From positions 1 to 43,442 of the forward strand of contig JAUQYZ020000087.1 of the NCBI GenBank assembly GCA_030587475.2: DNA of 43,442 bases. Reading direction: 5' to 3'. This DNA is from Candidatus Sigynarchaeum calidifontis. Its GTDB lineage: Archaea > Asgardarchaeota > Lokiarchaeia > Sigyniarchaeales > Sigyniarchaeaceae. A program made the translations under genes and the position numbers. The notes beneath the pieces were generated by a model that saw only the letters and a program-made list of their open reading frames with translations, had not been told where the DNA came from and did no database searches. This document shows, one piece after another, positions 1 through 21,441 of this stretch; the first letter of the stretch is position 1; every line of letters starts with the position of its first letter.

Positions 1-1889
1 GGACGTTTTTTGCTGTCGTTTTTCACCGTTGCATCGTGGGATTCATAATCTACATGCTCCGGTGGCGGAAAAATCTGCAATCGACGACCAACGCGGGCGT
101 GGTGCTCTCGCGCGTTTCCGTGGGGATCTCGATCATCTTGATGTTCACGTTGTATGGTGCCTTCCCCATGGCCGCCGTGGCATGGGGCGCGGTTAATTTC
201 GTCGACGCGTGGCCATCCATCGCGCTGGCGATCGCTGTTTGCGGTGTCTTGTTTATCTTTGGCTGGATCGGCGCGTCGAACCGTATCGGTGCGCTTTTCA
301 CGTTCTTGTCGTCCGCGCTAGCGATCTATGCCACGTGGGATTGGATGTACGGGGACGACGATGGCTTCTTCGTGCCGGCGTTTTCGATCTTGAAGTGGAC
401 GCTCCTTGTCGTCATCGTGGTTTTGGGGTTCAACGGGTTGTTCAACTTTTTCGGGATGTGGTTCACCCCGAACAATAGCTCTCGCCGCCGATGGGCATTT
501 GTCGAGAAAATCAGGAAAAAGGCAAGACAGCACGCGAAAGCCCTTACCCTGGCAGGATTTGCGACGATTGCGCTCGTACTGACCGGCACATTGTCGCAGG
601 TCGATGCGTTGTATCCACAAACCATCACGATAACGCCAAGGAATTACCAGGCACGATTGGCCTTCTGGGGCAGGACCACCTACGATTACTACACGGACAC
701 CCAGAAAGCCGAGCTGAACGAGCACAACGTCACGATCGTCTTCTACAACACCCCGGACATAAGGTATCCCGCATACAACACGTCTTTCATCAATGAAATG
801 AAATTATGGAGAGATAATTACCCGAACGTGAAATTTATCGCGGCGATACCGGGTATCACGCGAATCGCGAACACGGGCAACGAGTTAACGGATTTCCGAT
901 GGGGTGGCTTTGCATGGGACGGTGCAGTCGAAGGAACGGTCAAGTATGCCAAAAAATTCATTGAAATCGCTCAATACGAGAATCTCACGAATTTCATTGG
1001 CATTAACACCGATCAAGAGTCCCCCGACGACGAATTGGCCTCCATATATGGTGTTAATATCAGTCCAAATGCAACGCGCCATGCAGAGGCCATCCAAATG
1101 TACAACGATTTTCGCGCATGGGTGAACACGAATGCACCGGGGATGTTCCTCACGAGTACCATGGGAAACGAGCCGTTCGTCGACATGCAAGATGGAGATA
1201 ACGATTTACACGTCATTCACATGTGGAACGTGCTCGACGTGACGACATGGGACGAGATCGCCCCGATGATCTACCGTGGCGGCCACAAGGGCGAAAGGCC
1301 TTACGGCGGATACAAAAGCATCACCGAGGGCGGCGACGTGGTCGACGGCAGCATCATGGTCTATAACAAGCTCAAGTTCTTGAACAATTCCTTGTTCATG
1401 GTCGACGGGAATGCCGACCGCCTTGGGATCTACCTCGGCATCACGAACTGCACGTGCTACGGGCGGGACATCGACCAGTATGATAGTCACGGGAACTACC
1501 TCGGAAAGGGATATGACAGCCTCGTCCGCGACGCGCTGATCGCGAAGCACTTCGGTGCCAAGATCATCACGATCTTCATCCTCGACACGGTTATCGAGAA
1601 CGGGTATTCCATGGGCGGCGTGTTCGACACGTGGGGCGATAGCTTTCTCGACAATTTCAACGAGTCGATCAACGGCGAGAATTCCACGCGGCCCTTCACG
1701 ATCTATGTCGATCCGAATTACAACTTCTTGGCGGACATGAACAAGGATCTCATGTACAACCTCGGCCGACCGGCCGGCTTGGCGATCGTCCTGGCGCTCG
1801 TGGTTATTAATATCGCAGCCGCAACGTGCCTGCACCCGGCAATCAAGGCCCGGATCGTTTCCAAGCTGAAGCGAGTCGAATTTTCTTGA
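1..1889 (+). CDS. Multi-pass membrane protein with a large extracytoplasmic TIM-barrel/glycoside-hydrolase-like domain and a C-terminal TM helix (probably 5'-truncated by the window)
   Basis: ORF 36..1889. The frame stays open back to the window edge. It has about 6 N-terminal hydrophobic helices, then a soluble domain (IGINTDQES, WDEIAPMIY, many NxS/T sequons) and a C-terminal TM (AGLAIVLALVVINIAAA). Confidence 0.6.
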   Translation, partial: TFFAVVFHRCIVGFIIYMLRWRKNLQSTTNAGVVLSRVSVGISIILMFTLYGAFPMAAVAWGAVNFVDAWPSIALAIAVCGVLFIFGWIGASNRIGALFTFLSSALAIYATWDWMYGDDDGFFVPAFSILKWTLLVVIVVLGFNGLFNFFGMWFTPNNSSRRRWAFVEKIRKKARQHAKALTLAGFATIALVLTGTLSQVDALYPQTITITPRNYQARLAFWGRTTYDYYTDTQKAELNEHNVTIVFYNTPDIRYPAYNTSFINEMKLWRDNYPNVKFIAAIPGITRIANTGNELTDFRWGGFAWDGAVEGTVKYAKKFIEIAQYENLTNFIGINTDQESPDDELASIYGVNISPNATRHAEAIQMYNDFRAWVNTNAPGMFLTSTMGNEPFVDMQDGDNDLHVIHMWNVLDVTTWDEIAPMIYRGGHKGERPYGGYKSITEGGDVVDGSIMVYNKLKFLNNSLFMVDGNADRLGIYLGITNCTCYGRDIDQYDSHGNYLGKGYDSLVRDALIAKHFGAKIITIFILDTVIENGYSMGGVFDTWGDSFLDNFNESINGENSTRPFTIYVDPNYNFLADMNKDLMYNLGRPAGLAIVLALVVINIAAATCLHPAIKARIVSKLKRVEFS

Positions 1890-1977: not shown

Positions 1978-3621
1978 ATGGAGAACAAAAAAATCCAAAA
2001 CGGTGGAAAAAAATCGCCGGATGATCCCGTGGTGTCATTATCCGGTTCGATCGTGCTATTCCTTGTCTCGTGTTACCTATCCATCCTTCCAGCATCGACC
2101 GCGGGGTACTTGTTTCTCAAGTTGTTTGATCCATGGGCCGCGCTGGAAGCCACGGGCTCGTGGCTGGTGCCGGTCGCCATCATCCTTGCTGCCGTGATGC
2201 TCTCTCTCCTCGTTTTATATGGCTGGTCGTGGCTCCAGGCAAAACTTTCGGTTGGGTTGGTGATGGGATTCAAGGAGATTCCCGAGGGAAAATTCAAGAA
2301 GTCCTTGTATGACAAGGATTTCCAACAATTTTCAAAGCGGCACCTTGTCAAGAAATTCTCTATTTGGTTGTACAAGTTTCATTCGCCGCGCTGGTTGTAT
2401 CGAAAATATGCCGGCACGTTTATCAAGATCGGCAAGCACGTCGAGCTGCCCGAGTGGTTTCCCCTGGAAAAATGCGAGATCGGGGATAACACGGTCATTG
2501 CGAGGCAGATCGTGATCGGCTCGCACGTGATCGAGGGAGATTACGTGACGCTGAAGGCCGTGAAGATCGGGAAGAATTGCATCATCGACGCCGATGATGA
2601 AATGCACCGCACATGCGTCGCCCCTGGCGCTATAATAGAAGATAACGTGATCGTGAAGCCGGGCACGAGCATCATGAAAGACACCTTGTTGAAAGAAGGC
2701 GGGATCTACGAGGAGAATCCGGTGGTACACCGCATTGGTGAGGTCTCGAAGCTGCCCGATGACGAGATCGATGCATGGCGGAAGAAAGTTCTTGCCAAGA
2801 ACAAGCTCAAGTCGAAAATGCTTGACGATTGGTCGTCTTTCACATCCAGGATGCCCCGCTTGGTCAACAAGGCCGCGTCGCTGTTCGGATACGCCATGGG
2901 ACTTGGATTGATCATTGCATGGTGGTTCGGCGTGGTCGTAGCCCTCGATACATCTTTTCCCCTGTATGGATCCATTATCAACATCGTCCTTCTGCCGGCC
3001 ATCTTTTTCCTAGCTTATGGTTTTAACATTTTCTTCCCCTTCGTGGTGACAAACCACGCGGTGAAGAAACTTCGAAAATCATACCCCGCCATCTGCGGCC
3101 CCGTAGATAATAATCGCGCTATCGAGATCACGGATCCCGCAGTAATCGAGAAGTGGAAGTGTTACAAGTGGTTGCAGTGGCAATCGGTGGATCGCTTGAT
3201 GAGATCGCTGTTCCCGGATGTCATGACGTTCATGTACAAGTATATCGGCAAGGGAAACGATATCAATTTGAAATCCACGTTCACGGAAGCGCTTGTTGAC
3301 CCGGATCACGTTTCCATCGGGGAAAACACGCTTTTTAGCGTGGGTACGCACGTTTATGCCTATAGCTTGACTCGTGGCCCGAATCCACGGCTGGTCATAA
3401 AGAAGACATCTATCGGTAAAAATTGCATCATCGCGCCGTCGAACATCATGGCAGGGGCAAGCATCGGCGATAACGTGGTACTCGGTATTCACTCGGTCGT
3501 ACCAGAGGATGCTCGCTTGGAAGGCAATCAAGTGTACGCGGGAAACCCGGCAGTCGATTTCAAGACCTTCATAGCCATGAAAAAGCAGGCCAGGCAAAAT
3601 CTGGGGATAACTAGTACTTGA
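1978..3621 (+). CDS. Membrane protein with two left-handed beta-helix (hexapeptide repeat) acyltransferase-like domains
   Basis: Architecture is TM pair-LbH-TM pair-LbH. Hexapeptide repeats include IKIGKHV, CEIGDNTVI, VKIGKNCII, VSIGENTLF, TSIGKNCII, ASIGDNVVLG and the terminal YAGNPA. Confidence 0.75.
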   Translation: MENKKIQNGGKKSPDDPVVSLSGSIVLFLVSCYLSILPASTAGYLFLKLFDPWAALEATGSWLVPVAIILAAVMLSLLVLYGWSWLQAKLSVGLVMGFKEIPEGKFKKSLYDKDFQQFSKRHLVKKFSIWLYKFHSPRWLYRKYAGTFIKIGKHVELPEWFPLEKCEIGDNTVIARQIVIGSHVIEGDYVTLKAVKIGKNCIIDADDEMHRTCVAPGAIIEDNVIVKPGTSIMKDTLLKEGGIYEENPVVHRIGEVSKLPDDEIDAWRKKVLAKNKLKSKMLDDWSSFTSRMPRLVNKAASLFGYAMGLGLIIAWWFGVVVALDTSFPLYGSIINIVLLPAIFFLAYGFNIFFPFVVTNHAVKKLRKSYPAICGPVDNNRAIEITDPAVIEKWKCYKWLQWQSVDRLMRSLFPDVMTFMYKYIGKGNDINLKSTFTEALVDPDHVSIGENTLFSVGTHVYAYSLTRGPNPRLVIKKTSIGKNCIIAPSNIMAGASIGDNVVLGIHSVVPEDARLEGNQVYAGNPAVDFKTFIAMKKQARQNLGITST

Positions 3622-3640: not shown

Positions 3641-6600
3641 TTAGAAAATGTGCTTGGCCATGCATAGACCGTAGGCTGTTATCGTGAAGGTGTCCGTGAT
3701 CTCCCCCGCGGCGATCATCTCGGCAAATCGTCCGATAGGCACGTAAACCAGGGCATCGATCACCTCCGTGTCCTCTGGCGCCCGCTGCCCTACCCGTTCA
3801 AATTCCATTGCGGCAAAATAATGGACTTTCAAGCTTGATGTTCCCGAGTTATGCCAGAGCGTGGCGAGGGGGACGAGCTTGCCCTTGCAGCCGGTCTCCT
3901 CGAAAGCTTCGCGATTTGCCATCGCTTCGGGCGATTCCCCTTTTTTACCATAACCACGAGGTATCTCGAGCAACCATTGCTTGACCGGATACCGGTAAAC
4001 TTTAAGCAGCCCGATTTCCTTGTGAGGTGAAACGGGGAGTATCACGACGCCATCGATGCCGTCGTTCTCGACGATGACGTTGTATCGGCCCTCTTTTCCA
4101 CCTGGAAAACGAACGTGGTCGTAATAGAGCTTCACCCACGGGTTATCGGGAGATGAATAAACAAGCACCTTCTTTATCTGTTCTATCTGTTTTTTCATAT
4201 CATCACTTCCATCGACATTTTCAACGGGAACCATTGGTACTAGTCCGGGAAAATCGAGTGCAGGGATGTCATACATCGGGGAGATGGGCCGCGACCGCGA
4301 GACCGTGATAGCCAGCGGCCCGAGAATATCGGGTGTAATTGCACGTGGTTGCTCGGGGCTGATATCAGGGGGGATTTCTCTTTCCTCGGGAGGCGTTAAT
4401 TCTTTCTTGATGTATTCGTAATATGCGCTTTGGATCCCGACGAGCTCGCTCTCGCGACCGATGAATTTGGACACGTCGCGGAAAGCCTTGCGGAACTCGA
4501 TGCCGGGACTAGATTCACGCAATCGTAGGATGTCCTCGATATCGATACGCGCCAGCTCGATGCTCCGGATGGTGCCGGTGGAGGATTTCATACGGAAAAT
4601 GACATCCTTGCCAAGCTCAGCCTTGACAATGGGTGAAATGATGTCAAAAAGCTTTTTAGCTTGCTCATCGATGCTGAGTGCAAATCGGAAAACTATAGGC
4701 AAATTTGTCATGTATGCGCTGTCCGCAAGGATAGTGAACAAATGATGGTAGAACCAGGGCTTGCCAATCGCCTCGTTGCGTGCGTCCATCACGGTCTTGG
4801 CTGCTGTATCGCCAAGGCGCGCGATCGCATCCGCGAACTCTTTTTTAAACGCTGCATCGGAGGTCGGCTCCCGAAACAAGTTACCGAATTTGTAGAGCTG
4901 CGACCGGGTGAGCATGCCTCCTTCCAAGCAAGCTCGCACGAACTCGCGCATCGCGGGGATGATCTCCGCGACTCGGGCTGCATCATCACCACTAAAATTA
5001 TTCACGGTTTCCTTGCGTTCCAGCAGGCCCAGCGTGCGGCCACCATAATTGCCAGCGATGGTATCGAAATCGTACCAGTAAAATAAGTCCCGATGCTTTG
5101 AATAAAAGGCATCTAATGCAGTATAATAACTCGGATCTATTTTTTCGTGAAGAAAATCGGCCCGGTTTACCTGGCATTCTGTCCGGTATTCTGCAATAGG
5201 ATTTTCATTGGATACAAAATCGATGTCGACCTGAACCCCGGCTTTTTTCACCTTCTGGTGCCTGGGCAAGAGGGGACGGATCAAACCAAGATAGCGCTCG
5301 TCGGGCTTGCCGTCGCGCGACAGAACCTCGGTGATGAACACGCGAGAATTGAGCAAGAAATTCGGTCCGATAACCACCTTGTCGCTCGTGAGGAGTGCCC
5401 GGTGCAATTCAGCCTTTATATACGTCGCTTCGGGGATACCGAGAAGAAGCGCATTCGTGTTATCGAATGCTGGCACGTACGAAAGTAATTCTGGTCCAAT
5501 CATCACGGGTGATGTTTTCATGGCATCGGTAGACACTATGCTCTCGCGTGCTGACAAATGAGAATCCTTGATCCATCGTTCGATGAATTTGATGCCCTCG
5601 ATGCTTCCCGCGAGTATGGCTTGTTCGAGCGCGTCTCTTCCGAAGGTGTATGCCAGGTCCTCCAAGCCTGCAGCCTCGAGGCTCAATGCAAGCATTGCCG
5701 TGGGAACCCATGAATCGGGTAATGATCGCGCGTCCGGAAAGCCCTTCCGCATGAGTCTCACCGCGTCGGAAGCACGCTTGAATCCTTCACGCACGTCCCC
5801 CCGGGCGAGCGCATCGGCTGCCTGGTTCACGCACGTGGAAATCGCTACCTGGTCCGACGTGGATGTCCCGATATCCGGTCTCGACGCGATGGCTTTCGTG
5901 ATCGCCGCGTTGATTCCTTTGCTTGCACCCGGATCAGCACTGACCGGTAAGACAAGACGCCTCATAACCGCTTCGCTGGCCCCGACCAGCGCTGCCAGAT
6001 CGATCATGACCAGCCGGGCCCAGAACGTGCCGATGTCGCTTCCCCATTGCTTGATGCGACTCGCGAGAGCTGTATTGATGCCCGTGATCTTTCCGGGAAT
6101 GGCTGCACGGACGATTTGGAACCGGTTACCCATCTGTCGTGCAAGCATCTTGAACACGTCCGGTTCTGCATCGCCAGGCCGGACGAGCCAATGCACTGTT
6201 GCCAAGTCGCGCTCGGACTGCAACCGGAGGTAATTTAATCCGGTTTCTAGGTCGCCACCGCCAAATCCCATGAAGAACAAGGGGAATCGTTGTAAAATGA
6301 CAGATAAAACGTGAGCTATGGGCGCGGACAAGCCTTGAAGCCGCTGGGCTGCCGTGTCGACGCAGCTTTCAGGGTGTCGTGCAGTCCCGTGGAGTTTCAA
6401 GATGAACGCGTGGCTTTCCCGGCCGATGATGCCCGGGAACTGCGCGAGCAATTTAAAGCCACGGGGATTGTAAGCGACCACCACGTGCTTCGCCTGGTCG
6501 ATCCTCGATTGCTCATCCAATGCAGCACGATCCGTCGTTTCGTCCCCCGTGAGCTCGCACAGCCGTAGACCCCTGGCTACCAATGCATCCTCGATGCACC

Positions 6601-6994
6601 TATCGAAGTTCGTCGTGATGATCGCGGGAAAATCTCCGTTCTTGAGCCCTTCGGCAATCCAACCGTGGAACGCGTTCGGCTCGTGATTGGCAAGTGAAGA
6701 GATGACGGTCAAGTAATCTGAACCGAGCCGCTGCGCGATCGCCTCGGTCACCTCGAAAGCCTTGATCCGCCCTGCATAGAGATCATCGACGATTTGCCTT
6801 GACAAAACGATTTCTTTTGCTTCGGGAACTTGATCTTCCAGGGCAGATAGGATCATGGCGATGAACTTGTACCACGATGGTAGACTCGTGGGCTCGAACA
6901 TCGAAGCCGCGGAACCGAGGAAAGGGACGATTTTTTTCCCGGCGCTTCGTGTACTGGCGATTATAGTCTCGATTTCTGCGGGCATCTCGAGCAT
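3641..6994 (-). CDS. SIR2-like NADase / TPR-like / unknown domain / Nudix (ADP-ribose pyrophosphatase-like) fusion protein
   Basis: SIR2_2 motifs: IVPFLGSAAS...LPSW, IITTNFD, LKLHG, LFFMGFGGGD. C-terminal Nudix box GYGKKGESPEAMANREAFEETG fits GX5EX7REUXEEXG, with NudF-like YRYPV..WLLEIPRG and GEITD. Start placed at ATG 6994 (alternatives 6985, 7036, 7048). Confidence 0.85.
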   Translation of the reverse strand: MLEMPAEIETIIASTRSAGKKIVPFLGSAASMFEPTSLPSWYKFIAMILSALEDQVPEAKEIVLSRQIVDDLYAGRIKAFEVTEAIAQRLGSDYLTVISSLANHEPNAFHGWIAEGLKNGDFPAIITTNFDRCIEDALVARGLRLCELTGDETTDRAALDEQSRIDQAKHVVVAYNPRGFKLLAQFPGIIGRESHAFILKLHGTARHPESCVDTAAQRLQGLSAPIAHVLSVILQRFPLFFMGFGGGDLETGLNYLRLQSERDLATVHWLVRPGDAEPDVFKMLARQMGNRFQIVRAAIPGKITGINTALASRIKQWGSDIGTFWARLVMIDLAALVGASEAVMRRLVLPVSADPGASKGINAAITKAIASRPDIGTSTSDQVAISTCVNQAADALARGDVREGFKRASDAVRLMRKGFPDARSLPDSWVPTAMLALSLEAAGLEDLAYTFGRDALEQAILAGSIEGIKFIERWIKDSHLSARESIVSTDAMKTSPVMIGPELLSYVPAFDNTNALLLGIPEATYIKAELHRALLTSDKVVIGPNFLLNSRVFITEVLSRDGKPDERYLGLIRPLLPRHQKVKKAGVQVDIDFVSNENPIAEYRTECQVNRADFLHEKIDPSYYTALDAFYSKHRDLFYWYDFDTIAGNYGGRTLGLLERKETVNNFSGDDAARVAEIIPAMREFVRACLEGGMLTRSQLYKFGNLFREPTSDAAFKKEFADAIARLGDTAAKTVMDARNEAIGKPWFYHHLFTILADSAYMTNLPIVFRFALSIDEQAKKLFDIISPIVKAELGKDVIFRMKSSTGTIRSIELARIDIEDILRLRESSPGIEFRKAFRDVSKFIGRESELVGIQSAYYEYIKKELTPPEEREIPPDISPEQPRAITPDILGPLAITVSRSRPISPMYDIPALDFPGLVPMVPVENVDGSDDMKKQIEQIKKVLVYSSPDNPWVKLYYDHVRFPGGKEGRYNVIVENDGIDGVVILPVSPHKEIGLLKVYRYPVKQWLLEIPRGYGKKGESPEAMANREAFEETGCKGKLVPLATLWHNSGTSSLKVHYFAAMEFERVGQRAPEDTEVIDALVYVPIGRFAEMIAAGEITDTFTITAYGLCMAKHIF

Positions 6995-7136
6995 GGTCGC
7001 GTACCGCTGCACGTTTCTTCCAATGAATACCGTCATAAACCGTTCCACGCCATAAAAATCAGCGCGGGGTGGGAAAGTGAATATCCCCGATCAGCACATA
7101 ATCCTTATATCACGACCAAGGGAAGGTCGTAGCATC

Positions 7137-8708
7137 ATGTCAAAGTACGAACCGAGAAAAGAGAGTCACAAGGGCTTCTTATTCCGAAAAGACGACAAGT
7201 TATTTCTCAGGACGAAATTCATGCGCGATGCCGCAGAACTGGAGGTGCCGCTCGAGGAAATCCTCGAAGACTTCGAGGGAAAGGGCGTCGAAATCGACTT
7301 GTACACGCGCAAGACGGGAGAACCAATTTTCGCCTCGAAAGATTGGACCTTGCTTCCCGAGGAGCTGCCGGATCCCGATTACGAGTACTGTTCCGAGAAA
7401 GGGTACGAGAAGTTCCTCGACATGAAGTACGGCCTTTTCATGCATTGGGGGCAATACAGCGTTCTCGGGCTCACGGAGAGCTGGACGGCCAACGCGCAGA
7501 ACTGCCCGATGTACTGGTGGGAGACGTATTACACGCTCTACCAGTCTTTCAACCCGACCGATTTCAACGCAGACGAGTGGGCAGAGATGGCCCAACGCGC
7601 CGGCATGCAGTTTTTCATCCTCACGACCAAGCACCACGACGGCTTTTGCCTGTTCAACACGAAAACCAAGACCAAGGCACTCCGGCGCATCGGCCACTTG
7701 CACAACGTGGTCGTCGGCCCCGTCGAGGAATGTTACATCAACTATAGCATGATGGACACGCCCTACAAGGTCGACATCATCGACGAGGTAACCCGTGCCT
7801 TCCGCAAGAGGAACATGGGCATCGGATTTTACTTCAGCCACATTGATTGGAACGACCCGAACTTCCGATGGGATCCCGCAAACCGCTCGTTCGATCCCGA
7901 TTACAACCCGGAGAAAAATCCCGAGGACTGGAAGGCGTTCATCGAGCGTGAACGCCAGCAGCTGCACGAGATCTGTGGCAATTACGGCCCGCTGGACATG
8001 ATCTTTTTCGATGGAACATGGTACGGCCTAGCATGGACGGAGATGAAAAAGATCGTCAAGGAGATCCGCAAGATGCAGCCCGACTGCATGTTCTCGGATC
8101 GCGGCCTTGGCCCGATGGCAGATTTCACATCGCCAGAGCGCTGGATCCCCGCAGACAAGGACGACAAGCGCATCAAGCAGAAACGCAAGCATCCACTTGC
8201 CTGGCAGGTATGCGACGTCATCGCGACGCACTGGTCACACGTTCCCGACGAGAAATACAAGGACAAAAATGTCTTGCTCGACATGCTCATCAGCATCACG
8301 GCCAAGGGTGGCACGCTCGCGCTCAACGTCCCGCCCATGGGCAATGGCAAGTTCCCGCAGCAGAGCATCGACATCCTCGAATACATCGGCCGCTGGCTCA
8401 AAGTAAACGGCGAGGCCATCTACGCGACCCGGCCTGTCAATGGCGATTTCAAGCAAGGCGATAACATTTATTTCACGCGTTCCAAGGATGACAAGATCGT
8501 GTATGCAATCCATATCGGGTGGCCGCACGACAAGGTCGAGATCGCCAACGTGAAGGCCAAGGAGGGATCCGAGATCAAGATGCTGGGTATCGACGAGCCG
8601 CTGCCATGGCAGAACGCCGGCGGGAAGCTCGTCATCACGATCCCGCCCGCGCTGAACAAGAAAATCCCGTGCGAGCACGCGTTCAGCTTCAAGATCGAGC
8701 GGGCGTGA
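7137..8708 (+). CDS. Alpha-L-fucosidase (GH29) with an N-terminal extension
   Basis: KYGLFMHWGQYS, FNPTDFNADEWA, LTTKHHDGFCLF, MIFFDG (nucleophile), LALNVPPMGNG, IGRWLKVNGEAIYATRP and a C-terminal beta domain. ATG at 7137 follows a GGAAGG-like SD. Confidence 0.92.
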   Translation: MSKYEPRKESHKGFLFRKDDKLFLRTKFMRDAAELEVPLEEILEDFEGKGVEIDLYTRKTGEPIFASKDWTLLPEELPDPDYEYCSEKGYEKFLDMKYGLFMHWGQYSVLGLTESWTANAQNCPMYWWETYYTLYQSFNPTDFNADEWAEMAQRAGMQFFILTTKHHDGFCLFNTKTKTKALRRIGHLHNVVVGPVEECYINYSMMDTPYKVDIIDEVTRAFRKRNMGIGFYFSHIDWNDPNFRWDPANRSFDPDYNPEKNPEDWKAFIERERQQLHEICGNYGPLDMIFFDGTWYGLAWTEMKKIVKEIRKMQPDCMFSDRGLGPMADFTSPERWIPADKDDKRIKQKRKHPLAWQVCDVIATHWSHVPDEKYKDKNVLLDMLISITAKGGTLALNVPPMGNGKFPQQSIDILEYIGRWLKVNGEAIYATRPVNGDFKQGDNIYFTRSKDDKIVYAIHIGWPHDKVEIANVKAKEGSEIKMLGIDEPLPWQNAGGKLVITIPPALNKKIPCEHAFSFKIERA

Positions 8709-9876: not shown

Positions 9877-12015
9877 TTACTTGAAGGCCTTGGCCTCGAT
9901 GTCTTTCAAGGAGTACTCGTCGCCCTCGCCGTGGATCGAGTACTTGATCTCGATCTCCTCGTTGGCGGCGACCTCCTTGAACGTCCACGTGAGCATCGTG
10001 CCGTCTTTCTGGCCGGCTTGCTCGGGCTCGATGTCCTTGACCTTCGATGCGCTGGTGACCGAGAAACCCTTTGGCACGAAGTCGGCAATCTTGACATCGG
10101 TCTTCGGCGAGTCGCCCTTGTTCTTGTAGATCAGGACGATGTCGTAATCGCCCTTGCTCTTCCCTGGGGCGATGGCCTTCCCGACGTGCGTGCGGCGGCG
10201 CTCGTGCGCGACCGTGATCGGGTCCGGCGTGAACGACCATTCGATGACACCCGATGGCTTGACGAACCCCTGGAAGAGGATGGGCGCCGTGTACTGCGTG
10301 TCCCGGGGCGGCTTGTACGCGACGAGCGGGTACGTGATCTTGATCTCGGTCTCGTCGTCGAGCTCGCCGATGTTTTCGAGCACGTCCTTGATGTCGATGA
10401 GCATCTTGCGTTCCACGCTCAAGTCGTCTCCCGCGGGTTCGAACTTGAATTCGAAATCGTCGGCAGGGATCTCCTTGTCCTCGATCATGATCTTCATGTT
10501 CTCCTTCAAGGGATTCTTGAAGTTGGCCGGGATGCGATCCTCGATGTGGATCTTGTCGATGGGCGCCTTGCCTTGCGTTTTCACCTCGACGAGAGCATCG
10601 ATCGTGCTTTCCCGGTACGACGCGATGCGGCTCTTCGAGAAGGTCTTCTTTCCTTCCAGCGCCAGGATGCGCAGCTCGATGGGCGCGATGGTCTGGCTCA
10701 TCGAGAGCTTGTACTCCGTGTCCGCGATGACCGAATAGACGATGTTCTCGCTGAACGTGGGCTCATCCTCGCTCTTGAGATCCCACGGTTTTGCCTTCCA
10801 CGTTTCACCGGGCGGGATGATCACGTCCGTGAGGATCTCGTCGATGACCTTGGTTTCCGTGTTCTCGTCGCCGAAGACGAAGTTGTACCGTTCCAGTTTC
10901 ATTGGAAACTCGGAGCGGTTGCGGAATTCGAACGTGCAGTCCCAGACATCTGGCTCCTCGTCGCGCTCGTCCCTGTCGACGAAGTGGATCTGGTCGGACC
11001 AGCCATCCACGAAGGTCGTCTTGAGACCACTATACGTGCCCGCGGCAACGAAGTATTTTGCCTTGATCTCGCCGCTCTTGAACGCTTTCTTCTCGTTCGT
11101 GCGCACCTTGATCTTGAGCTCCATGGACGCCTTCTTTCCGCCATCGAGCTCCTCGATCTTCCACACGACCTCGTCGCCGTCCCGCTTGGCCCTGCCGTCG
11201 CTCGTTTTCACGACATCCACGTCGTTGAAGTCGGGTGGTATCGCCTTGCGGATCTCGATCTCGCTGAGCTTTGCCTCGCCCGTGTTCTCGGCGGTGATCA
11301 CGATCTGGGCAACCTGGCCGCGCGAGTCCTTGTCATACACGAAGACCTGGCTTTTCTGCGCCGTCTCGGGGAACGTGTCGATCTCCTCGACGATCTTGAG
11401 CAATGGCGTGTCGTCCTTCCCGATCTTGATCTTGTATTCCTGTTTCCATTCCTCGCCGGGATCCAACTCGGGGATGTGGACCTCCTTGGGCAGGTCAGCC
11501 TTCTCGCCGCCCTCGAACGTGAGGTCGATGTCCCAGATCCGGTTCTTGCTGCCGCCGTTCACGACGGAAACCGTGCCGCTCACCGAGGATCCCGTGATTT
11601 TACCGTCGTACTCGGTCTGGAAATCGAGTGCCTCGACGATCGAGACCTTGTACTTGCTCTTCCCCTCCTCGCCGCGACGTTCGCGGGTCCTGGTCGAAGC
11701 GCTTTCATATTCATCACGCCTTGCGGACACTGCGGCTGCAGCAGTTCCTTCAACCGCTTTCACGCCTTCTACGTCCGCTACTTTACTAAAGAAGACCTGG
11801 AGGACTTGGTGGGTGGACGGGTCTATGCTCACGTCCCGGCCCTTGCTTTTTTCAAGGGCCTCCTTGAATGCATTGTTACTTTTTTTATCGAGCGTGGCGA
11901 CGATATCCTTGTAACTTTTCTCGACGCCCTTCATGTTCGTGTTACCCGACACGTTGAGCGCCGTATCCTTCAACTCGACGTCGCCAAAAGATAGCTTCCA
12001 TTTCTTCGATGCCAT
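9877..12015 (-). CDS. Cytoplasmic beta-sandwich protein with a mu-homology-domain (adaptor/COPI medium subunit)-like core plus DUF11/Ig-like repeats, paralogue 1
   Basis: No signal peptide or TM. Segments resemble mu-adaptin C-domain motifs: VSIVEALDFQTEYDGKITGSSVSGTVSV; IEIRKAIPPDF..SDGRAKRDGDEVVWKIEELDGGKKASMELKI; EIKAKYFVAAGTYSGLK. Full-length similarity to 18516..20642. The CDS is certain; the MHD call is by eye. Confidence 0.6.
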   Translation of the reverse strand: MASKKWKLSFGDVELKDTALNVSGNTNMKGVEKSYKDIVATLDKKSNNAFKEALEKSKGRDVSIDPSTHQVLQVFFSKVADVEGVKAVEGTAAAAVSARRDEYESASTRTRERRGEEGKSKYKVSIVEALDFQTEYDGKITGSSVSGTVSVVNGGSKNRIWDIDLTFEGGEKADLPKEVHIPELDPGEEWKQEYKIKIGKDDTPLLKIVEEIDTFPETAQKSQVFVYDKDSRGQVAQIVITAENTGEAKLSEIEIRKAIPPDFNDVDVVKTSDGRAKRDGDEVVWKIEELDGGKKASMELKIKVRTNEKKAFKSGEIKAKYFVAAGTYSGLKTTFVDGWSDQIHFVDRDERDEEPDVWDCTFEFRNRSEFPMKLERYNFVFGDENTETKVIDEILTDVIIPPGETWKAKPWDLKSEDEPTFSENIVYSVIADTEYKLSMSQTIAPIELRILALEGKKTFSKSRIASYRESTIDALVEVKTQGKAPIDKIHIEDRIPANFKNPLKENMKIMIEDKEIPADDFEFKFEPAGDDLSVERKMLIDIKDVLENIGELDDETEIKITYPLVAYKPPRDTQYTAPILFQGFVKPSGVIEWSFTPDPITVAHERRRTHVGKAIAPGKSKGDYDIVLIYKNKGDSPKTDVKIADFVPKGFSVTSASKVKDIEPEQAGQKDGTMLTWTFKEVAANEEIEIKYSIHGEGDEYSLKDIEAKAFK

Positions 12016-12501
12016 AGGAGTAATCACAACCAGTTACACTGTTCAGTATAGAACGATCACTGGACGATCAACTTGCACTAATCATCCTTAAAAAAGTGTC
12101 GATAGGTGGGGATAGGTGGTCACGAGTGCCCTTTGTTCAACTGGCCTTGTAACGGGGCAATATTAGAAGCCTTTGTGGAATAGCCTACTAAAACGTGGCT
12201 CATCGCCCGATCTGGCACCTCGAAGTCGACGTTCCCGTCGAATACAAGGACTCAATTGGCAAGGAAACGATTAGCACGTGGATGGAAAAATTGACGGTGC
12301 CGATATTTCGAAATACACACGAATTGAATGGTGGTAAAAGTGAAAGTGTCGAACGTGTCGATGGGTGTAGATAGGTAGGCCCGAGGGCATATTCTTCTAC
12401 CGGCCCCGCAGCATAATAATATTACAAGTCTTCGAGGGGTACCTACAAAAACGCGCATATTCCTTTTTATCTCCCGAATAAAAGGTTGATGCCGATACCC
12501 G

Positions 12502-16391: not shown

Positions 16392-17435
16392 TTATTTCTT
16401 GCGCACGTGCTCTATAATCTTGATGCCAAGTTCCTTGAAAGCCTCGTCGACGTTCTCGCCGGTCAAGGCCGACGTGAGCACGACCGGCATCCCGAGGGCT
16501 TTCGACAGCTCCGCGATTTCATGGTCGGTCACTCGCCGCTGGTCGGCCAAGTCGTGCTTGTTGCCGAGGATCAAGCCTGGCGTCTCGCCGATCAGCGACT
16601 TGATGTCGTTCGACCACGCGTAGACGCTTTTCAAGGTCTCTGGTTGCGTGAGGTCGAACACGAGCACGTGGCCGGATGCACCGCTGTAGAAACTCTTGCG
16701 AAACCGCTGGAACTTGGCCTGGCCAGCGAGATCCCAAAGCTGGAAGGAGAGATAGCAATTGGGGAGCTCGATGGTCTTGTCCGTGATGTTGGTGCCGAGA
16801 GTTGGCATGTACGTGCGCTTGAAGGCCTTGTCGGTGAACCTGAGCACCAGGGAGGTCTTCCCGACGGCGGGATCGCCGCAGATGATGCACTTGAACTTGA
16901 GGGTTTCTTTTACTTGAGATTGCGGCTGCTCCTCGTCGGCCGCGGGGAACGCAGTCGCCCCCCGGGGCGCCATCTCTTGCGCTCGGAACGACTCCACGAG
17001 GTCGACGGATTCCTTGAACATGGAAGCGACCAGTTCTCGAATCTTTTGCCAGTTGACCTTTTCCTCCTCTCCTTGAACGATCAGCTTCGAATATTTATCA
17101 AAAAGATGTTGGAAATCGTGGATGTACTTGTAAAAAATGATGTCGTTCTCCTCATCAAATACGAGGCACAAGGTTATGTCGCACGCGCGGCCCCGGCGCG
17201 TGGCATCGTGGTAACTGCCGAACTTGACATACGCCTTGAGAGACAGCCCGGGAATCGGGATGATGGCCAGCGCGTCGGGAATCTGATCCCGGCCGAATGA
17301 CAAGCCCATGGATTCCGAGGCCACTCGGTTCCGGGTCTCCTCCGAGATGGAATCTGGAAAACAATAGCTGGGCTTCGGCCCGAGCTTTTCGTCGAATTTC
17401 GAGTACACGATCCCGAGCACTGGAGTCTTTTCCAT
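16392..17435 (-). CDS. Longin/uDENN-like domain fused to a Rab-like small GTPase
   Basis: G1 GDPAVGKTS, G2 YMPTLG, G3 WDLAGQ, G4 GNKHD, G5 TSAL, and Rab-like F..FRKSFYSGA. The N-terminal VLGIVYSKFDEKLGPKP resembles the uDENN/NPRL2 longin start. Start set at ATG 17435 (ORF track gives 17537). Confidence 0.85.
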   Translation of the reverse strand: MEKTPVLGIVYSKFDEKLGPKPSYCFPDSISEETRNRVASESMGLSFGRDQIPDALAIIPIPGLSLKAYVKFGSYHDATRRGRACDITLCLVFDEENDIIFYKYIHDFQHLFDKYSKLIVQGEEEKVNWQKIRELVASMFKESVDLVESFRAQEMAPRGATAFPAADEEQPQSQVKETLKFKCIICGDPAVGKTSLVLRFTDKAFKRTYMPTLGTNITDKTIELPNCYLSFQLWDLAGQAKFQRFRKSFYSGASGHVLVFDLTQPETLKSVYAWSNDIKSLIGETPGLILGNKHDLADQRRVTDHEIAELSKALGMPVVLTSALTGENVDEAFKELGIKIIEHVRKK

Positions 17436-17550
17436 GGTCGCTCGTTCCACCAGCTTGATTTCTTCCTCGATAAATGCAAGCACCAGCGCGTTAAAAACCT
17501 TGCCCAGTTCACGATGATTCAATAGGCCAGCCATCATTCGTCTTTACAAG

Positions 17551-18515: not shown

Positions 18516-20642
18516 TTACTTGAAAGCCTTGGCCTCGATGTCCTTGAGCGATGCTTCATCGCTTTTTCCTTGAACCTTGTAGGACAGCTCGACCTCTTTA
18601 CCCGCTTCAACGTCGAACGTCCAGATGAGCATGGTTCCGTCGGCACGTTTCGTCGTCTCGCATTCGGGTTTTTGTGCCATCACGGCGAATTCCTTGGGCA
18701 CGAAATCCGAGACCTTGACGCCGGTCTTGTTGAAATCCGCCTTGTTCTTGTAGATGAGAACGATATCGTATTCACCCTTAGCCATGCCTGGCACGATGGA
18801 CTTGCCGACGGTCGTCTTGCGGCGCTGGTGCACTACGACGACGGATTGGGACGTTTCCATTTTACACTCGATGGGCGGGCCAGGCAATGTCAGGTAAGCC
18901 TGGAACAATGATTCCGTCTTGTACGTTGCATCGCGTTTCGGATGATGCACCATGACCGGATACTTGACCTGGATCGACGTGTTGTCCTCGATTTCACCGA
19001 AACGATCCTTGATTTCCTTTACATCGATGGTCATCTTGCGCTCGGTCGCGATGTCGTCGCCCGAATAGGCGACCGTGTACAATGTAGGATCGACCTTTTG
19101 CCCGGCGATAAACACTTCAATTTCCTTTGCATCGGGGTTCGCGAAATCGCGCGGGATGGTATCTTCCAGGTGCATCGATGCCACGGGCGCGGCACCGCGC
19201 GTTTTCACGTCTATGACCGCGTGGAGCAGGTTATCTCGGTAACTCTTCACTGCATAGGCATCGAACGTCTTGGTTCCCTCCAGGGCTAGGACGTGCAAGT
19301 CGAGGGGCTCGATCCACGTGCTATAAATCGTCTTTTGCACGATGTCGGGCGTGACCGTGAAGCCGACGGCCACGTCCTTGAATATGGCGACGACATTGTC
19401 CTTGAACCCGGGCTCGTCCGCGGACTCGATGGTGAATTTCTCCGACGTCCATGCACTGCCGGGATCGATGTCCGTGTTGGCATCCAGCGACACAGGGGTA
19501 ATCTTCCCGCCGGTGGTCTCGAACTTGAGCAAAATCTCGCCGAGATGCATGGGGAACTCGGACCGGTTCTCGATCGTCACGATCCCGTCCCAAACGTCAG
19601 GTTCCGTGTCGCGCTCATCGAGATCGAGGGAGAAAGCCGTCGATCCCCCGAGCAATATCTTGTCAGCTTTCAAACTTACACGCGTGTCGGATGCGATTTC
19701 ATATTCGACATCGATTTCACCACTCGAGTATGCCGTGATATCTTTTGGAAAGGCGCGTGCTTTCAGCTCCAGCGTTGCAGTCTCGCCAGGATTTAAATCC
19801 CCGACATCCCAGACTACTTCACCCGCGTCCCGTTTCGCACTGCCTCGGGATGCCGTGCCGATCGTGACCTCGCGAAAGACGTCGGTCACCTGTTTCGATA
19901 CCTTGAGCCCGGTAGCTATTTTCTGGCCGGAATTCTGCACGTTAAGCTTGAACGACGTGTCTTGCCCCTTTTCTTCCGCGTCGAGCACGAACACGAGCGA
20001 TGGCTGGGTTCCTCCTGGTGCAGTGTTTATTTCCTCCACGAGCTGGACGGGCGGCTTCGTGCCATCCTTGAATGCCATGCCGTATTCCCTTTTCCATTCC
20101 TCGCCTGCCCGCAACTCGTTCACGTGAAATTGGCGGCCTTCCAAGGTCGTGTCATCGCCGCCATCGACGTTGATGTCGATGTCCCAGACGGATTGCTTGT
20201 CGGCCTTGTTCACGATCGAGATAGAGCCTGCACCTTTCGCAGATTTGACCTCGCCATCATGTGATATCTCGTGGTTGATGATCTCCTCGATCATGGCGGA
20301 AATCTTCCCGCCCGGAGCACCCGCTTTCGAGCCCGAGGGAGAAGTCCTTTCGGGTTCCCGCTCCCGCTCTTCCACGTATTCCCCTTGGACACCTTCCTTT
20401 TCGCCGATTTTCGAGAAGTATGCATCGAGCTCCGCGCGGCGCTCCGGTTTGAAGGCGTACACGCGAGTTTTTTTCTTCTCGAAAACATTCATCAGTACCA
20501 TTTTGCTTTCATCGGACAAGCTGGCCGTTTCCTTGTATTTCTTGTCGAGACCCTTGTAATCGGTATCAGCACGTACGGTGAGCTTGTCGTCGAATAATTC
20601 CACGTGACCTATGGAAAGATCCCATATCTTCTTCCGAATCAC
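18516..20642 (-). CDS. Cytoplasmic MHD-like/DUF11-like beta-sandwich protein, paralogue 2
   Basis: Collinear with 9877..12015: shares WDIDI, GEEWK.EY, DERD.EPDVWD, NRSEFPM, LALEG.KTF, SYR, YDIVLIYKNK and the identical end SLKDIEAKAFK. Start set at GTG 20642, which follows an AGGTGG SD and matches the paralogue's N-terminus. The ORF-track extension overlaps the ThuA-like gene. Confidence 0.6.
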   Translation of the reverse strand: MIRKKIWDLSIGHVELFDDKLTVRADTDYKGLDKKYKETASLSDESKMVLMNVFEKKKTRVYAFKPERRAELDAYFSKIGEKEGVQGEYVEEREREPERTSPSGSKAGAPGGKISAMIEEIINHEISHDGEVKSAKGAGSISIVNKADKQSVWDIDINVDGGDDTTLEGRQFHVNELRAGEEWKREYGMAFKDGTKPPVQLVEEINTAPGGTQPSLVFVLDAEEKGQDTSFKLNVQNSGQKIATGLKVSKQVTDVFREVTIGTASRGSAKRDAGEVVWDVGDLNPGETATLELKARAFPKDITAYSSGEIDVEYEIASDTRVSLKADKILLGGSTAFSLDLDERDTEPDVWDGIVTIENRSEFPMHLGEILLKFETTGGKITPVSLDANTDIDPGSAWTSEKFTIESADEPGFKDNVVAIFKDVAVGFTVTPDIVQKTIYSTWIEPLDLHVLALEGTKTFDAYAVKSYRDNLLHAVIDVKTRGAAPVASMHLEDTIPRDFANPDAKEIEVFIAGQKVDPTLYTVAYSGDDIATERKMTIDVKEIKDRFGEIEDNTSIQVKYPVMVHHPKRDATYKTESLFQAYLTLPGPPIECKMETSQSVVVVHQRRKTTVGKSIVPGMAKGEYDIVLIYKNKADFNKTGVKVSDFVPKEFAVMAQKPECETTKRADGTMLIWTFDVEAGKEVELSYKVQGKSDEASLKDIEAKAFK

Positions 20643-20757
20643 TGGTTCCACCTTGACAATATCCAACAAGAACGACAACTCACGGGTTAATGAAGCTTCT
20701 GGTGGCCGGGGAAAAATCAGAACAATGGAATCGATGATCCGGGTGAAAAAAAAGTAC

Positions 20758-21441
20758 CTATCGCTGACGCGTTGCCCAGAGAAGCCCCCGCTTGAGGATC
20801 TCCCTCGCCTCGGGCACTTCGAAGTCAACATAGGTATGACCATATGACATGTAGAAGATCTTGCCATCGCCCCACGTGCGCTTGTAGACGACGGGCATGA
20901 CCACGCCATCGATCCACGGCATCGCGATGTTATGGAAAGTGGTCGTGCAGAGCACTTCCCCGTTCACGCCTTGCAAGATGGCCGGGTCGACATTGATGTA
21001 GTATTGTTCCGATTTCAAGTGAAATCCCTTGAGCCCCTTGACGATGGGATCGTCCTTTTTCGCCTCGACGATGTCCACGTCATAGTCGACGATTCCGCCC
21101 GGGTGGGCGACCCAGTTGCTGCCCGTGAAAAACTCGTAATCCGTCGACTGCCGGAAGGAATCGTTCATGCCACCGTGCCAGCCGACGAAGCCGAGCCCGT
21201 CCATGACCGCCGCGATGAGTCCCTTGACTTGCTTGTCCTCGATTGTCGACATGGTCCAGCATTGCACGAGCAAGTCGAGCGACTCGAGATACTTCTCATC
21301 CTCGTATATCTTGAGCGTTTGCTTGACGTCGACCTCGTATCCGGCCTCTTCGAGAATGTCTTGCACGAGCATCGACGACGCGGAGGGCGTGTGCCCGTCC
21401 CAACCACCCCACGTGATACAAGCCTTCGGTTTTCTCGTCAT
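20758..21441 (-). CDS. ThuA-like domain protein (class I glutamine amidotransferase-like fold)
   Basis: WGGWDGHTP, DLLVQCWTM, GLGFVGWHGGMNDSFR, WVAHPG, SEQYY and WGDGKIFYMSYGH. ATG at 21441 with TTATAAAG about 40 nt upstream. Confidence 0.85.
   Translation of the reverse strand: MTRKPKACITWGGWDGHTPSASSMLVQDILEEAGYEVDVKQTLKIYEDEKYLESLDLLVQCWTMSTIEDKQVKGLIAAVMDGLGFVGWHGGMNDSFRQSTDYEFFTGSNWVAHPGGIVDYDVDIVEAKKDDPIVKGLKGFHLKSEQYYINVDPAILQGVNGEVLCTTTFHNIAMPWIDGVVMPVVYKRTWGDGKIFYMSYGHTYVDFEVPEAREILKRGLLWATRQR

Follow-up and report, generated by a model that had tools for sequence, protein, structure and literature searches.

Domain architecture of the gene

The subject of the present analysis is a single gene on contig C8 (JAUQYZ020000087.1) from the 5.0-Mb genome of Candidatus Sigynarchaeum calidifontis; the stretch of 43,442 bases with which this contig begins is called the window below. 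On the minus strand of the window lies one uninterrupted open reading frame (ORF), 3641-7048, in which a SIR2 domain, TPR-like hairpins, a large central domain here named X, a linker and a Nudix domain follow one another in a single chain. The product comprises 1117 amino acids (aa) from the ATG at 6994, the start that the homologue in a second Asgard genome (G010) also matches, or 1135 aa from the GTG at 7048. Its parts are arranged as follows.

3641..7048, minus strand: whole ORF, SIR2-TPR-X-Nudix; first in-frame start GTG 7048; homologues share the domain order
6080..6994, minus strand: Zn-less SIR2 (SIRim-type) domain, residues 1-305; Pfam SIR2_2, ThsA fold match, motifs
5555..5914, minus strand: TPR-like helical hairpins, residues 361-480; DSSP helices, weak profile matches
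4220..5506, minus strand: domain X, residues 497-925, Pro-rich tail included; family search, model
4136..4219, minus strand: linker, residues 926-953; variable in the alignment, predicted local distance difference test (pLDDT) below 50
3644..4162, minus strand: Nudix hydrolase domain, residues 945-1117; Nudix box 3890-3955 intact, loop Glu1077

A first-pass annotation, made from the letters of the DNA, had placed an N-terminal SIR2_2 domain, a TPR-like segment, an unassigned domain and a Nudix domain in this one gene, and the ORF, the Pfam matches and an AlphaFold model of the full chain (pLDDT 83.9; predicted template modelling score, pTM, 0.75) all agree with it. Its Pro-rich linker had to be redrawn, since most of that stretch is the conserved tail of the central domain and the true, poorly modelled linker is limited to residues 926-953.

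The SIR2 domain matches Pfam SIR2_2 over the cut-off (E 3.8e-11) and carries GSAAS at residue 27, Asn129 and Asp131 in TTNFD, and His202 in LHG, just as the annotation had described. Its Cys residues are scattered at 133, 146 and 211 only, with no CxxC, and the Zn-binding Cys tetrad of deacetylase sirtuins was not found in it. In fold it comes closest to ThsA (7uxt; Z 19.3, root-mean-square deviation (rmsd) 2.9, 235 residues aligned), other matches being KomC (Z 16.9), Avs5 (Z 14.6-15.9) and FAM118B (Z 13.8); its sequence profile is closest to KomC. Across the family the His is kept in 14 of 14 members and the Asn in 13 of 14. NADase chemistry is characteristic of Zn-less SIR2 domains, and the motifs support a defence-type, Zn-less SIR2 part with conserved catalytic residues, for which NADase activity is predicted. 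The TPR segment that follows gave weak profile matches to the TPRs of kinesin light chains and to designed repeats, and the combination of SIR2 with TPR is common to the prokaryotic outgroup proteins. Three more SIR2_2 genes, with frames of 1002-1291 aa, were seen elsewhere in this genome (G000), on contigs C219, C187 and C10 (L084, L086 and L087), and related Lokiarchaeia carry many SIR2 proteins of 860-940 aa, which are probably SIR2-TPR.

Domain X, modelled alone, is a large alpha/beta domain (pLDDT 88.8, pTM 0.87) with conserved residues at D511, R697-S698, Y701, D758, Y761 and N764. Used as a query, it matched 27 proteins among 1.84 billion representatives, and there was no usable match to it in Pfam, PADLOC, the ESM Atlas (features and structure), Foldseek PDB or BFVD. 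Its best structural match (VIA) reached Z 5.5 with rmsd 5.7 over 173 aligned residues, a value that the tool does not treat as reliable. Class I aminoacyl-tRNA synthetases (aaRS) or cyclodipeptide synthases made up many of the 50 best rows (Z <=5.5, rmsd 5-6), and we take this HUP-like resemblance as a lead only. Failed matches do not prove a new fold; judged from the model, X is a domain of about 430 aa that is confidently predicted and has no clear structural match. X may bear a likeness to DUF6236, a family that occurred in none of the genomes searched. A complex prediction for X and Nudix scored 0.00, which counts neither way.

The Nudix domain, which belongs to a class of enzymes with pyrophosphatase chemistry, matches Pfam NUDIX over the cut-off (E 2.4e-7) and has a canonical Nudix box at G1014-G1035. 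Its best fold matches are Ndx2 (Z 21.0, rmsd 1.9, 137 residues aligned) and a Bdellovibrio nucleoside diphosphate (NDP)-sugar hydrolase (Z 19.7), and several of its structural matches, ADP-ribose pyrophosphatases (ADPRases) and NDP-sugar hydrolases, were solved with ADP-ribose (ADPR). Downstream of the box, NSG stands where the ADPRase-type signature has the S-P-G motif, and the NudF model scored 17.3 bits against a cut-off of 248. In the Nudix tree the domain falls into a clade made up mostly of X-like-partnered prokaryotic Nudix genes, together with three plasmid Nudix (94 in the Shimodaira-Hasegawa-like approximate likelihood ratio test, SH-aLRT), apart from the solo Asgard Nudix; a separate solo Nudix is present in the same genome. 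The label "intact NudF-like Nudix", given in the first pass, consequently stands for the box and for the ADPRase/NDP-sugar-hydrolase fold, but not for the NudF assignment, given the low score and the separate clade.

A patchy family and its prokaryotic counterparts

Among 400 sampled Asgard genomes X is present in four, which represent four genera, three families and one order; to the question, raised from the outset, of patchy distribution versus a conserved core gene, the answer is therefore patchy. X was not found in a genome of the same genus (G001, 81% complete). One copy (G019) holds X and an intact Nudix and is cut off by the contig start, and the G010 copy ends near residue 793, three assemblies breaking within 100 bases of that stop; this truncated gene ends in a short hairpin at the assembly break, perhaps a repeat. 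The copy in G003 was considered as a natural short form and rejected, its SIR2 ORF and an opposite-strand Ras ORF ending abruptly at the same place. At L003:3150-3260 this metagenome-assembled genome, 63% complete and present as one scaffold of 3.7 Mb, shows a likely join of contigs without Ns.

The named eukaryotic members come from the chytrids Polychytrium, Nowakowskiella (two members) and Rhizoclosmatium, the ascomycetes Aspergillus caelatus, Lindgomyces and Cladophialophora, and the centrohelid Pterocystis; several environmental members were assigned to eukaryotes by likeness only. The closest non-Asgard protein, P0003, is 41% identical over SIR2, TPR, X and Nudix, and its gene, whose neighbours are of eukaryote type, has an apparent GT-AG intron behind the first motif. 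Neither the representative search nor the SIR2-part patterns, by which bacterial genomes were probed less deeply, brought up a named full-length member from bacteria, and on viral contigs nothing related to P0044 or to the SIR2 part was found. By sequence, and in the searches run, the family is mainly eukaryotic or eukaryote-like, with full-length prokaryotic relatives only in Asgard archaea.

In the SIR2 tree the family forms one clade (100/99) against the prokaryotic SIR2-TPR proteins, and the Asgard copies nest among the eukaryotes, grouping with P0003 (96/93), with monophyly of the eukaryotes not rejected by the approximately unbiased test (p-AU 0.217). In the Nudix tree, by contrast, a single group (95) unites the eukaryote-type sequences, and the window protein is its sister (86). 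Because of this discrepancy and of the p-AU value, no donor is claimed: a transfer between Asgards and eukaryotes possibly happened in either direction, as inheritance from Asgards or from eukaryote to Asgard.

The four domains are not equally retained. An intact Nudix is seen in P0003, P0010 and P0011 and in the two Asgard copies long enough to include it, and a shifted one in P0007. Eight family members lack it and two (chytrids) have it in degenerate form, SIR2-TPR-X being retained, which amounts to more than half of the complete homologues; no Nudix lies downstream of P0012 or P0015 on their short contigs. The constant core of the family is SIR2-TPR-X, and the Nudix is its variable part.

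A second setting is seen for the closest Nudix proteins that stand alone, whose identity is 40-46% along most of their length. All five of the nearest solo Nudix genes looked up directly follow, overlapping or abutting, a gene of 430-471 aa without known family, at the following loci.

L092:6622-8588: X-like + Nudix pair
L094:669-2611: X-like + Nudix pair
L096:684-2647: X-like + Nudix pair
L097:1348-3268: X-like + Nudix pair
L101:1814-3653: X-like + Nudix pair

None of the five loci holds a SIR2 gene, and two of them hold restriction-modification, Z1, GmrSD or PemK genes. The X profile ranks two of the partner genes above 1,705 decoy ORFs, with 15.0 and 10.8 bits (E 9e-4 and 0.016) against a decoy maximum of 4.0; the remaining three partners are related to one another and rank the first two above the decoys (E 0.015 and 0.13), and four short motifs are collinear between X and the partner genes. 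Homology of X to the prokaryotic Nudix-partner genes is, on these sequence comparisons, probable, and the X-like/Nudix two-gene unit, which is undescribed, is a candidate for a defence system of its own. On plasmids, eight relatives of the Nudix were examined, all of them without an X-like gene upstream, and neither P0041 nor P0042 had a match there. At L097:555-1340, directly upstream of the pair and co-oriented with it, there is a 261-aa gene of unassigned family (P0045), near an IS91-type element and with no PADLOC match.

As for the surroundings of the gene itself, the first-pass annotation had it standing alone, convergent and divergent with unrelated neighbours, and these are indeed metabolic genes. 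It had also suggested checking whether homologues sit in defence islands: beside the G010 copy lie a PIN gene, a macro protein of DarG type and a fragment of an AriA/AbiL-like ATPase, and the window is no such island. The adaptin-like and Ras-family genes of the window agree with an Asgard host. Other features of the two loci are the following.

Window 7077..8708, plus strand: alpha-L-fucosidase, divergent neighbour (context only)
Window 36-1889, plus strand: 617-aa ORF of no family, convergent on the gene
Window 1978-3621, plus strand: membrane protein with hexapeptide repeats, similar to the Pls/PosA terminal domain; also convergent on the gene
Window 9877-12027, minus strand: adaptin mu-like/DUF11 protein, Asgard eukaryotic-signature type
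Window 16392-17537, minus strand: Ras-family GTPase with a 210-aa N-terminal extension, eukaryotic-signature type
Window 18516-20909, minus strand: second DUF11 protein, eukaryotic-signature type
L036:5674-12457 (G010 organism): small defence-like cluster of a macro/DarG-like protein, a PIN gene and a fragment of an AriA/AbiL-like ATPase, followed by the truncated SIR2-TPR-X gene

A proposed gated NADase and its rivals

Our preferred reading, which we hold tentatively and regard as falling somewhat short of an even chance, is that the window protein would be a gated NADase of immunity or cell death, made as one chain and silent by default, in which a nucleotide signal is under the control of X-Nudix. 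Two modules would have been joined here: SIR2-TPR, of a type common in Lokiarchaeia and bacteria, and X-Nudix, which elsewhere in prokaryotes seems to stand alone as a two-gene unit. TPR and X would keep SIR2 inactive until a trigger arrives, and the Nudix, as an accessory of X, might hydrolyse a diphosphate-linked nucleotide (ADPR or a related compound) bound or made by X, its hydrolysis setting the threshold or resetting the switch. The loss of the Nudix while SIR2-TPR-X stays, taken with the X-like/Nudix pairs free of SIR2, suggests that the Nudix is tied to X rather than serving SIR2.

Several observations weigh against this reading. In place of the GAG kept by the outgroup, the phosphate-binding loop reads GSA or GAA in almost every member of the family (GSG in one), and with this alteration the NADase could be weak or altered; moreover, the PADLOC matches span only part of the SIR2 domain, with none outside it. 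The likeness of X to its prokaryotic partners is weak (hhalign probability 20%), the second group of partners is tied in only via P0041 (E 0.015), and the five loci amount to about two partner lineages. Where eukaryotic gene models show no Nudix, exons that were missed may be part of the reason. Finally, the window is a metabolic neighbourhood with no defence island, and the fucosidase neighbour recurs at G003 (a 52% identical gene, there in tandem orientation).

The first-pass annotation had proposed a more direct coupling, in which NAD+ is split by SIR2 and the ADPR so formed is destroyed by the Nudix fused to it, thereby blocking viral NAD+ rebuilding from ADPR by NARP1. NARP1 does use ADPR (PMC13464706), and the fold matches to ADPR-bound enzymes as well as the Nudix box, intact in both Asgard copies reaching it, speak in its favour. 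We nevertheless consider it unlikely, weakened as it is by the ten family members with an absent or degenerate Nudix and by the closest prokaryotic Nudix genes, which are paired with an X-like gene and have no SIR2 nearby; in addition, the Pro of the S-P-G motif is replaced, and the genome has its separate solo Nudix. The alternative offered in the same annotation, a sensor or reset role for the Nudix, fits better. The ADPR-destroying model and the gated NADase can hold together if ADPR is the Nudix substrate.

Might X instead be the toxic element? In such a toxin-antitoxin style arrangement X would be a toxic enzyme, for example one of HUP-like nucleotidyl transfer, the Nudix its antidote and SIR2-TPR a second effector, as the overlapping or abutting genes of the prokaryotic pairs, the conserved polar residues of X and the aaRS and cyclodipeptide synthase rows among its structural matches would suggest. 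The probability that we give to this is low: those matches fall below the trust level of the tool, eukaryotic members retain X without the Nudix, and X lacks the Asp found in the second strand of the partners.

No greater probability is granted to a non-immune or low-activity enzyme of NAD+/ADPR signalling or housekeeping, a weak NADase like that reported for human FAM118/SIRanc. The metabolic context with its shared fucosidase neighbour, the altered GAG loop and the FAM118B fold match are consistent with such an enzyme, and a weak signalling NADase has been reported for SIRanc in a survey of sirims (10.1101/2024.09.18.613514). Presence in 1% of the sampled Asgard genomes, with the gene not found in G001, argues against a housekeeping role, as do the truncation of one copy and the defence neighbours at G010 and at two X-like/Nudix loci.

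An artefact, either an assembly chimera or a eukaryotic contig binned in an archaeal genome, is highly improbable in spite of the mostly eukaryotic homologues, a bin contamination of 5.2% and the lack of reads spanning the gene (a hot-spring DNA run, 0.07 share, covers short pieces near the Nudix end only), since unrelated genomes show the domains in an identical order (P0003, P0009, G019), a 100% identical 993-aa record exists from a 13-kb contig, the gene has a GC content of 50-59% against 54.2% for the genome, it is intronless among prokaryote-type genes, and three more Asgard genomes carry it.

Significance and relation to known systems

Published eukaryotic SIR2 immune lineages have been traced to prokaryotic defence systems (Thoeris, pAgo), and the present family, whose full-length prokaryotic relatives are Asgard in the searches run, offers a testable case either of an immune effector that eukaryotes have in common with the archaea nearest to them or of transfer back from eukaryotes. 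It may connect eukaryotic immunity with the antiviral defence of microbes. The family also brings to light a domain of 430 aa that is modelled confidently yet has no clear structural match, together with a small prokaryotic X-like plus Nudix two-gene unit, and, if the Nudix removes ADPR, a host answer to viral NAD+ rebuilding. In its widest form the proposal would be that X-Nudix represents a defence module so far undescribed, based on nucleotides and new in its fold, joined to SIR2-TPR in a chain that passed between Asgards and eukaryotes and founded an unrecognised eukaryotic lineage of immune NADases; we put this forward as a rather doubtful possibility.

That the four-part architecture is no catalogued system, as first suspected, agrees with our comparisons, in which none matched, and no description of it was met in the literature searched. 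The parts specific to known systems (SLOG or macro with TIR; KomA/KomB; STAND; HerA; pAgo) were not found by Pfam in the protein and the main ORFs of the window, or by PADLOC in the protein. With DSR1/DSR2 the sequence match is confined to SIR2 (E 0.019), the whole-chain Foldseek comparison gives TM 0.17 with rmsd 39, and no DSR model matched in PADLOC.

The ADPR and NDP-sugar pyrophosphatases (Ndx2, Bdellovibrio NDPSase, MT-ADPRase, NUDT5, NudF/NudE) share with the Nudix domain the N-terminal beta extension, the Nudix box and the loop Glu, but the domain lies far below the NCBIfam cut-offs, carries NSG rather than SPG and groups in a different clade. The prokaryotic SIR2-TPR proteins of Lokiarchaeia and metagenomes are the nearest outgroup, alignable over SIR2 and the start of TPR; unlike the family they keep GAG, and no X match was found in the sequence fetched.

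The eukaryotic sirims of clades A-E, including FAM118/SIRanc, are alike in that a SIRim domain shared by prokaryotes and scattered eukaryotes is patchily distributed and fused to other parts, whereas the text of the survey names SIR2-NACHT/NB-ARC-repeat and SIR2-macro proteins and none with Nudix or an Asgard sister (10.1101/2024.09.18.613514), its Table S4 possibly listing members. In the same survey, sequences without the GxG motif were dropped from the tree (10.1101/2024.09.18.613514); this phosphate-binding motif of SIRim domains is missing from the window protein.

It is the SIRim NADases (ThsA, KomC, Avs5, DSR2) that provide the nearest model, sharing the Zn-less SIR2 Rossmann fold, the Asn and His, and the layout of an N-terminal effector with a C-terminal regulatory part. 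The differences are that no SLOG, macro, STAND, HerA or pAgo part or partner gene was detected here, that the GAG loop is altered, and that the C-terminal X and Nudix are not found in those systems. The window protein is best regarded as a member of no named system, and by analogy it would work like the SIRim NADases.

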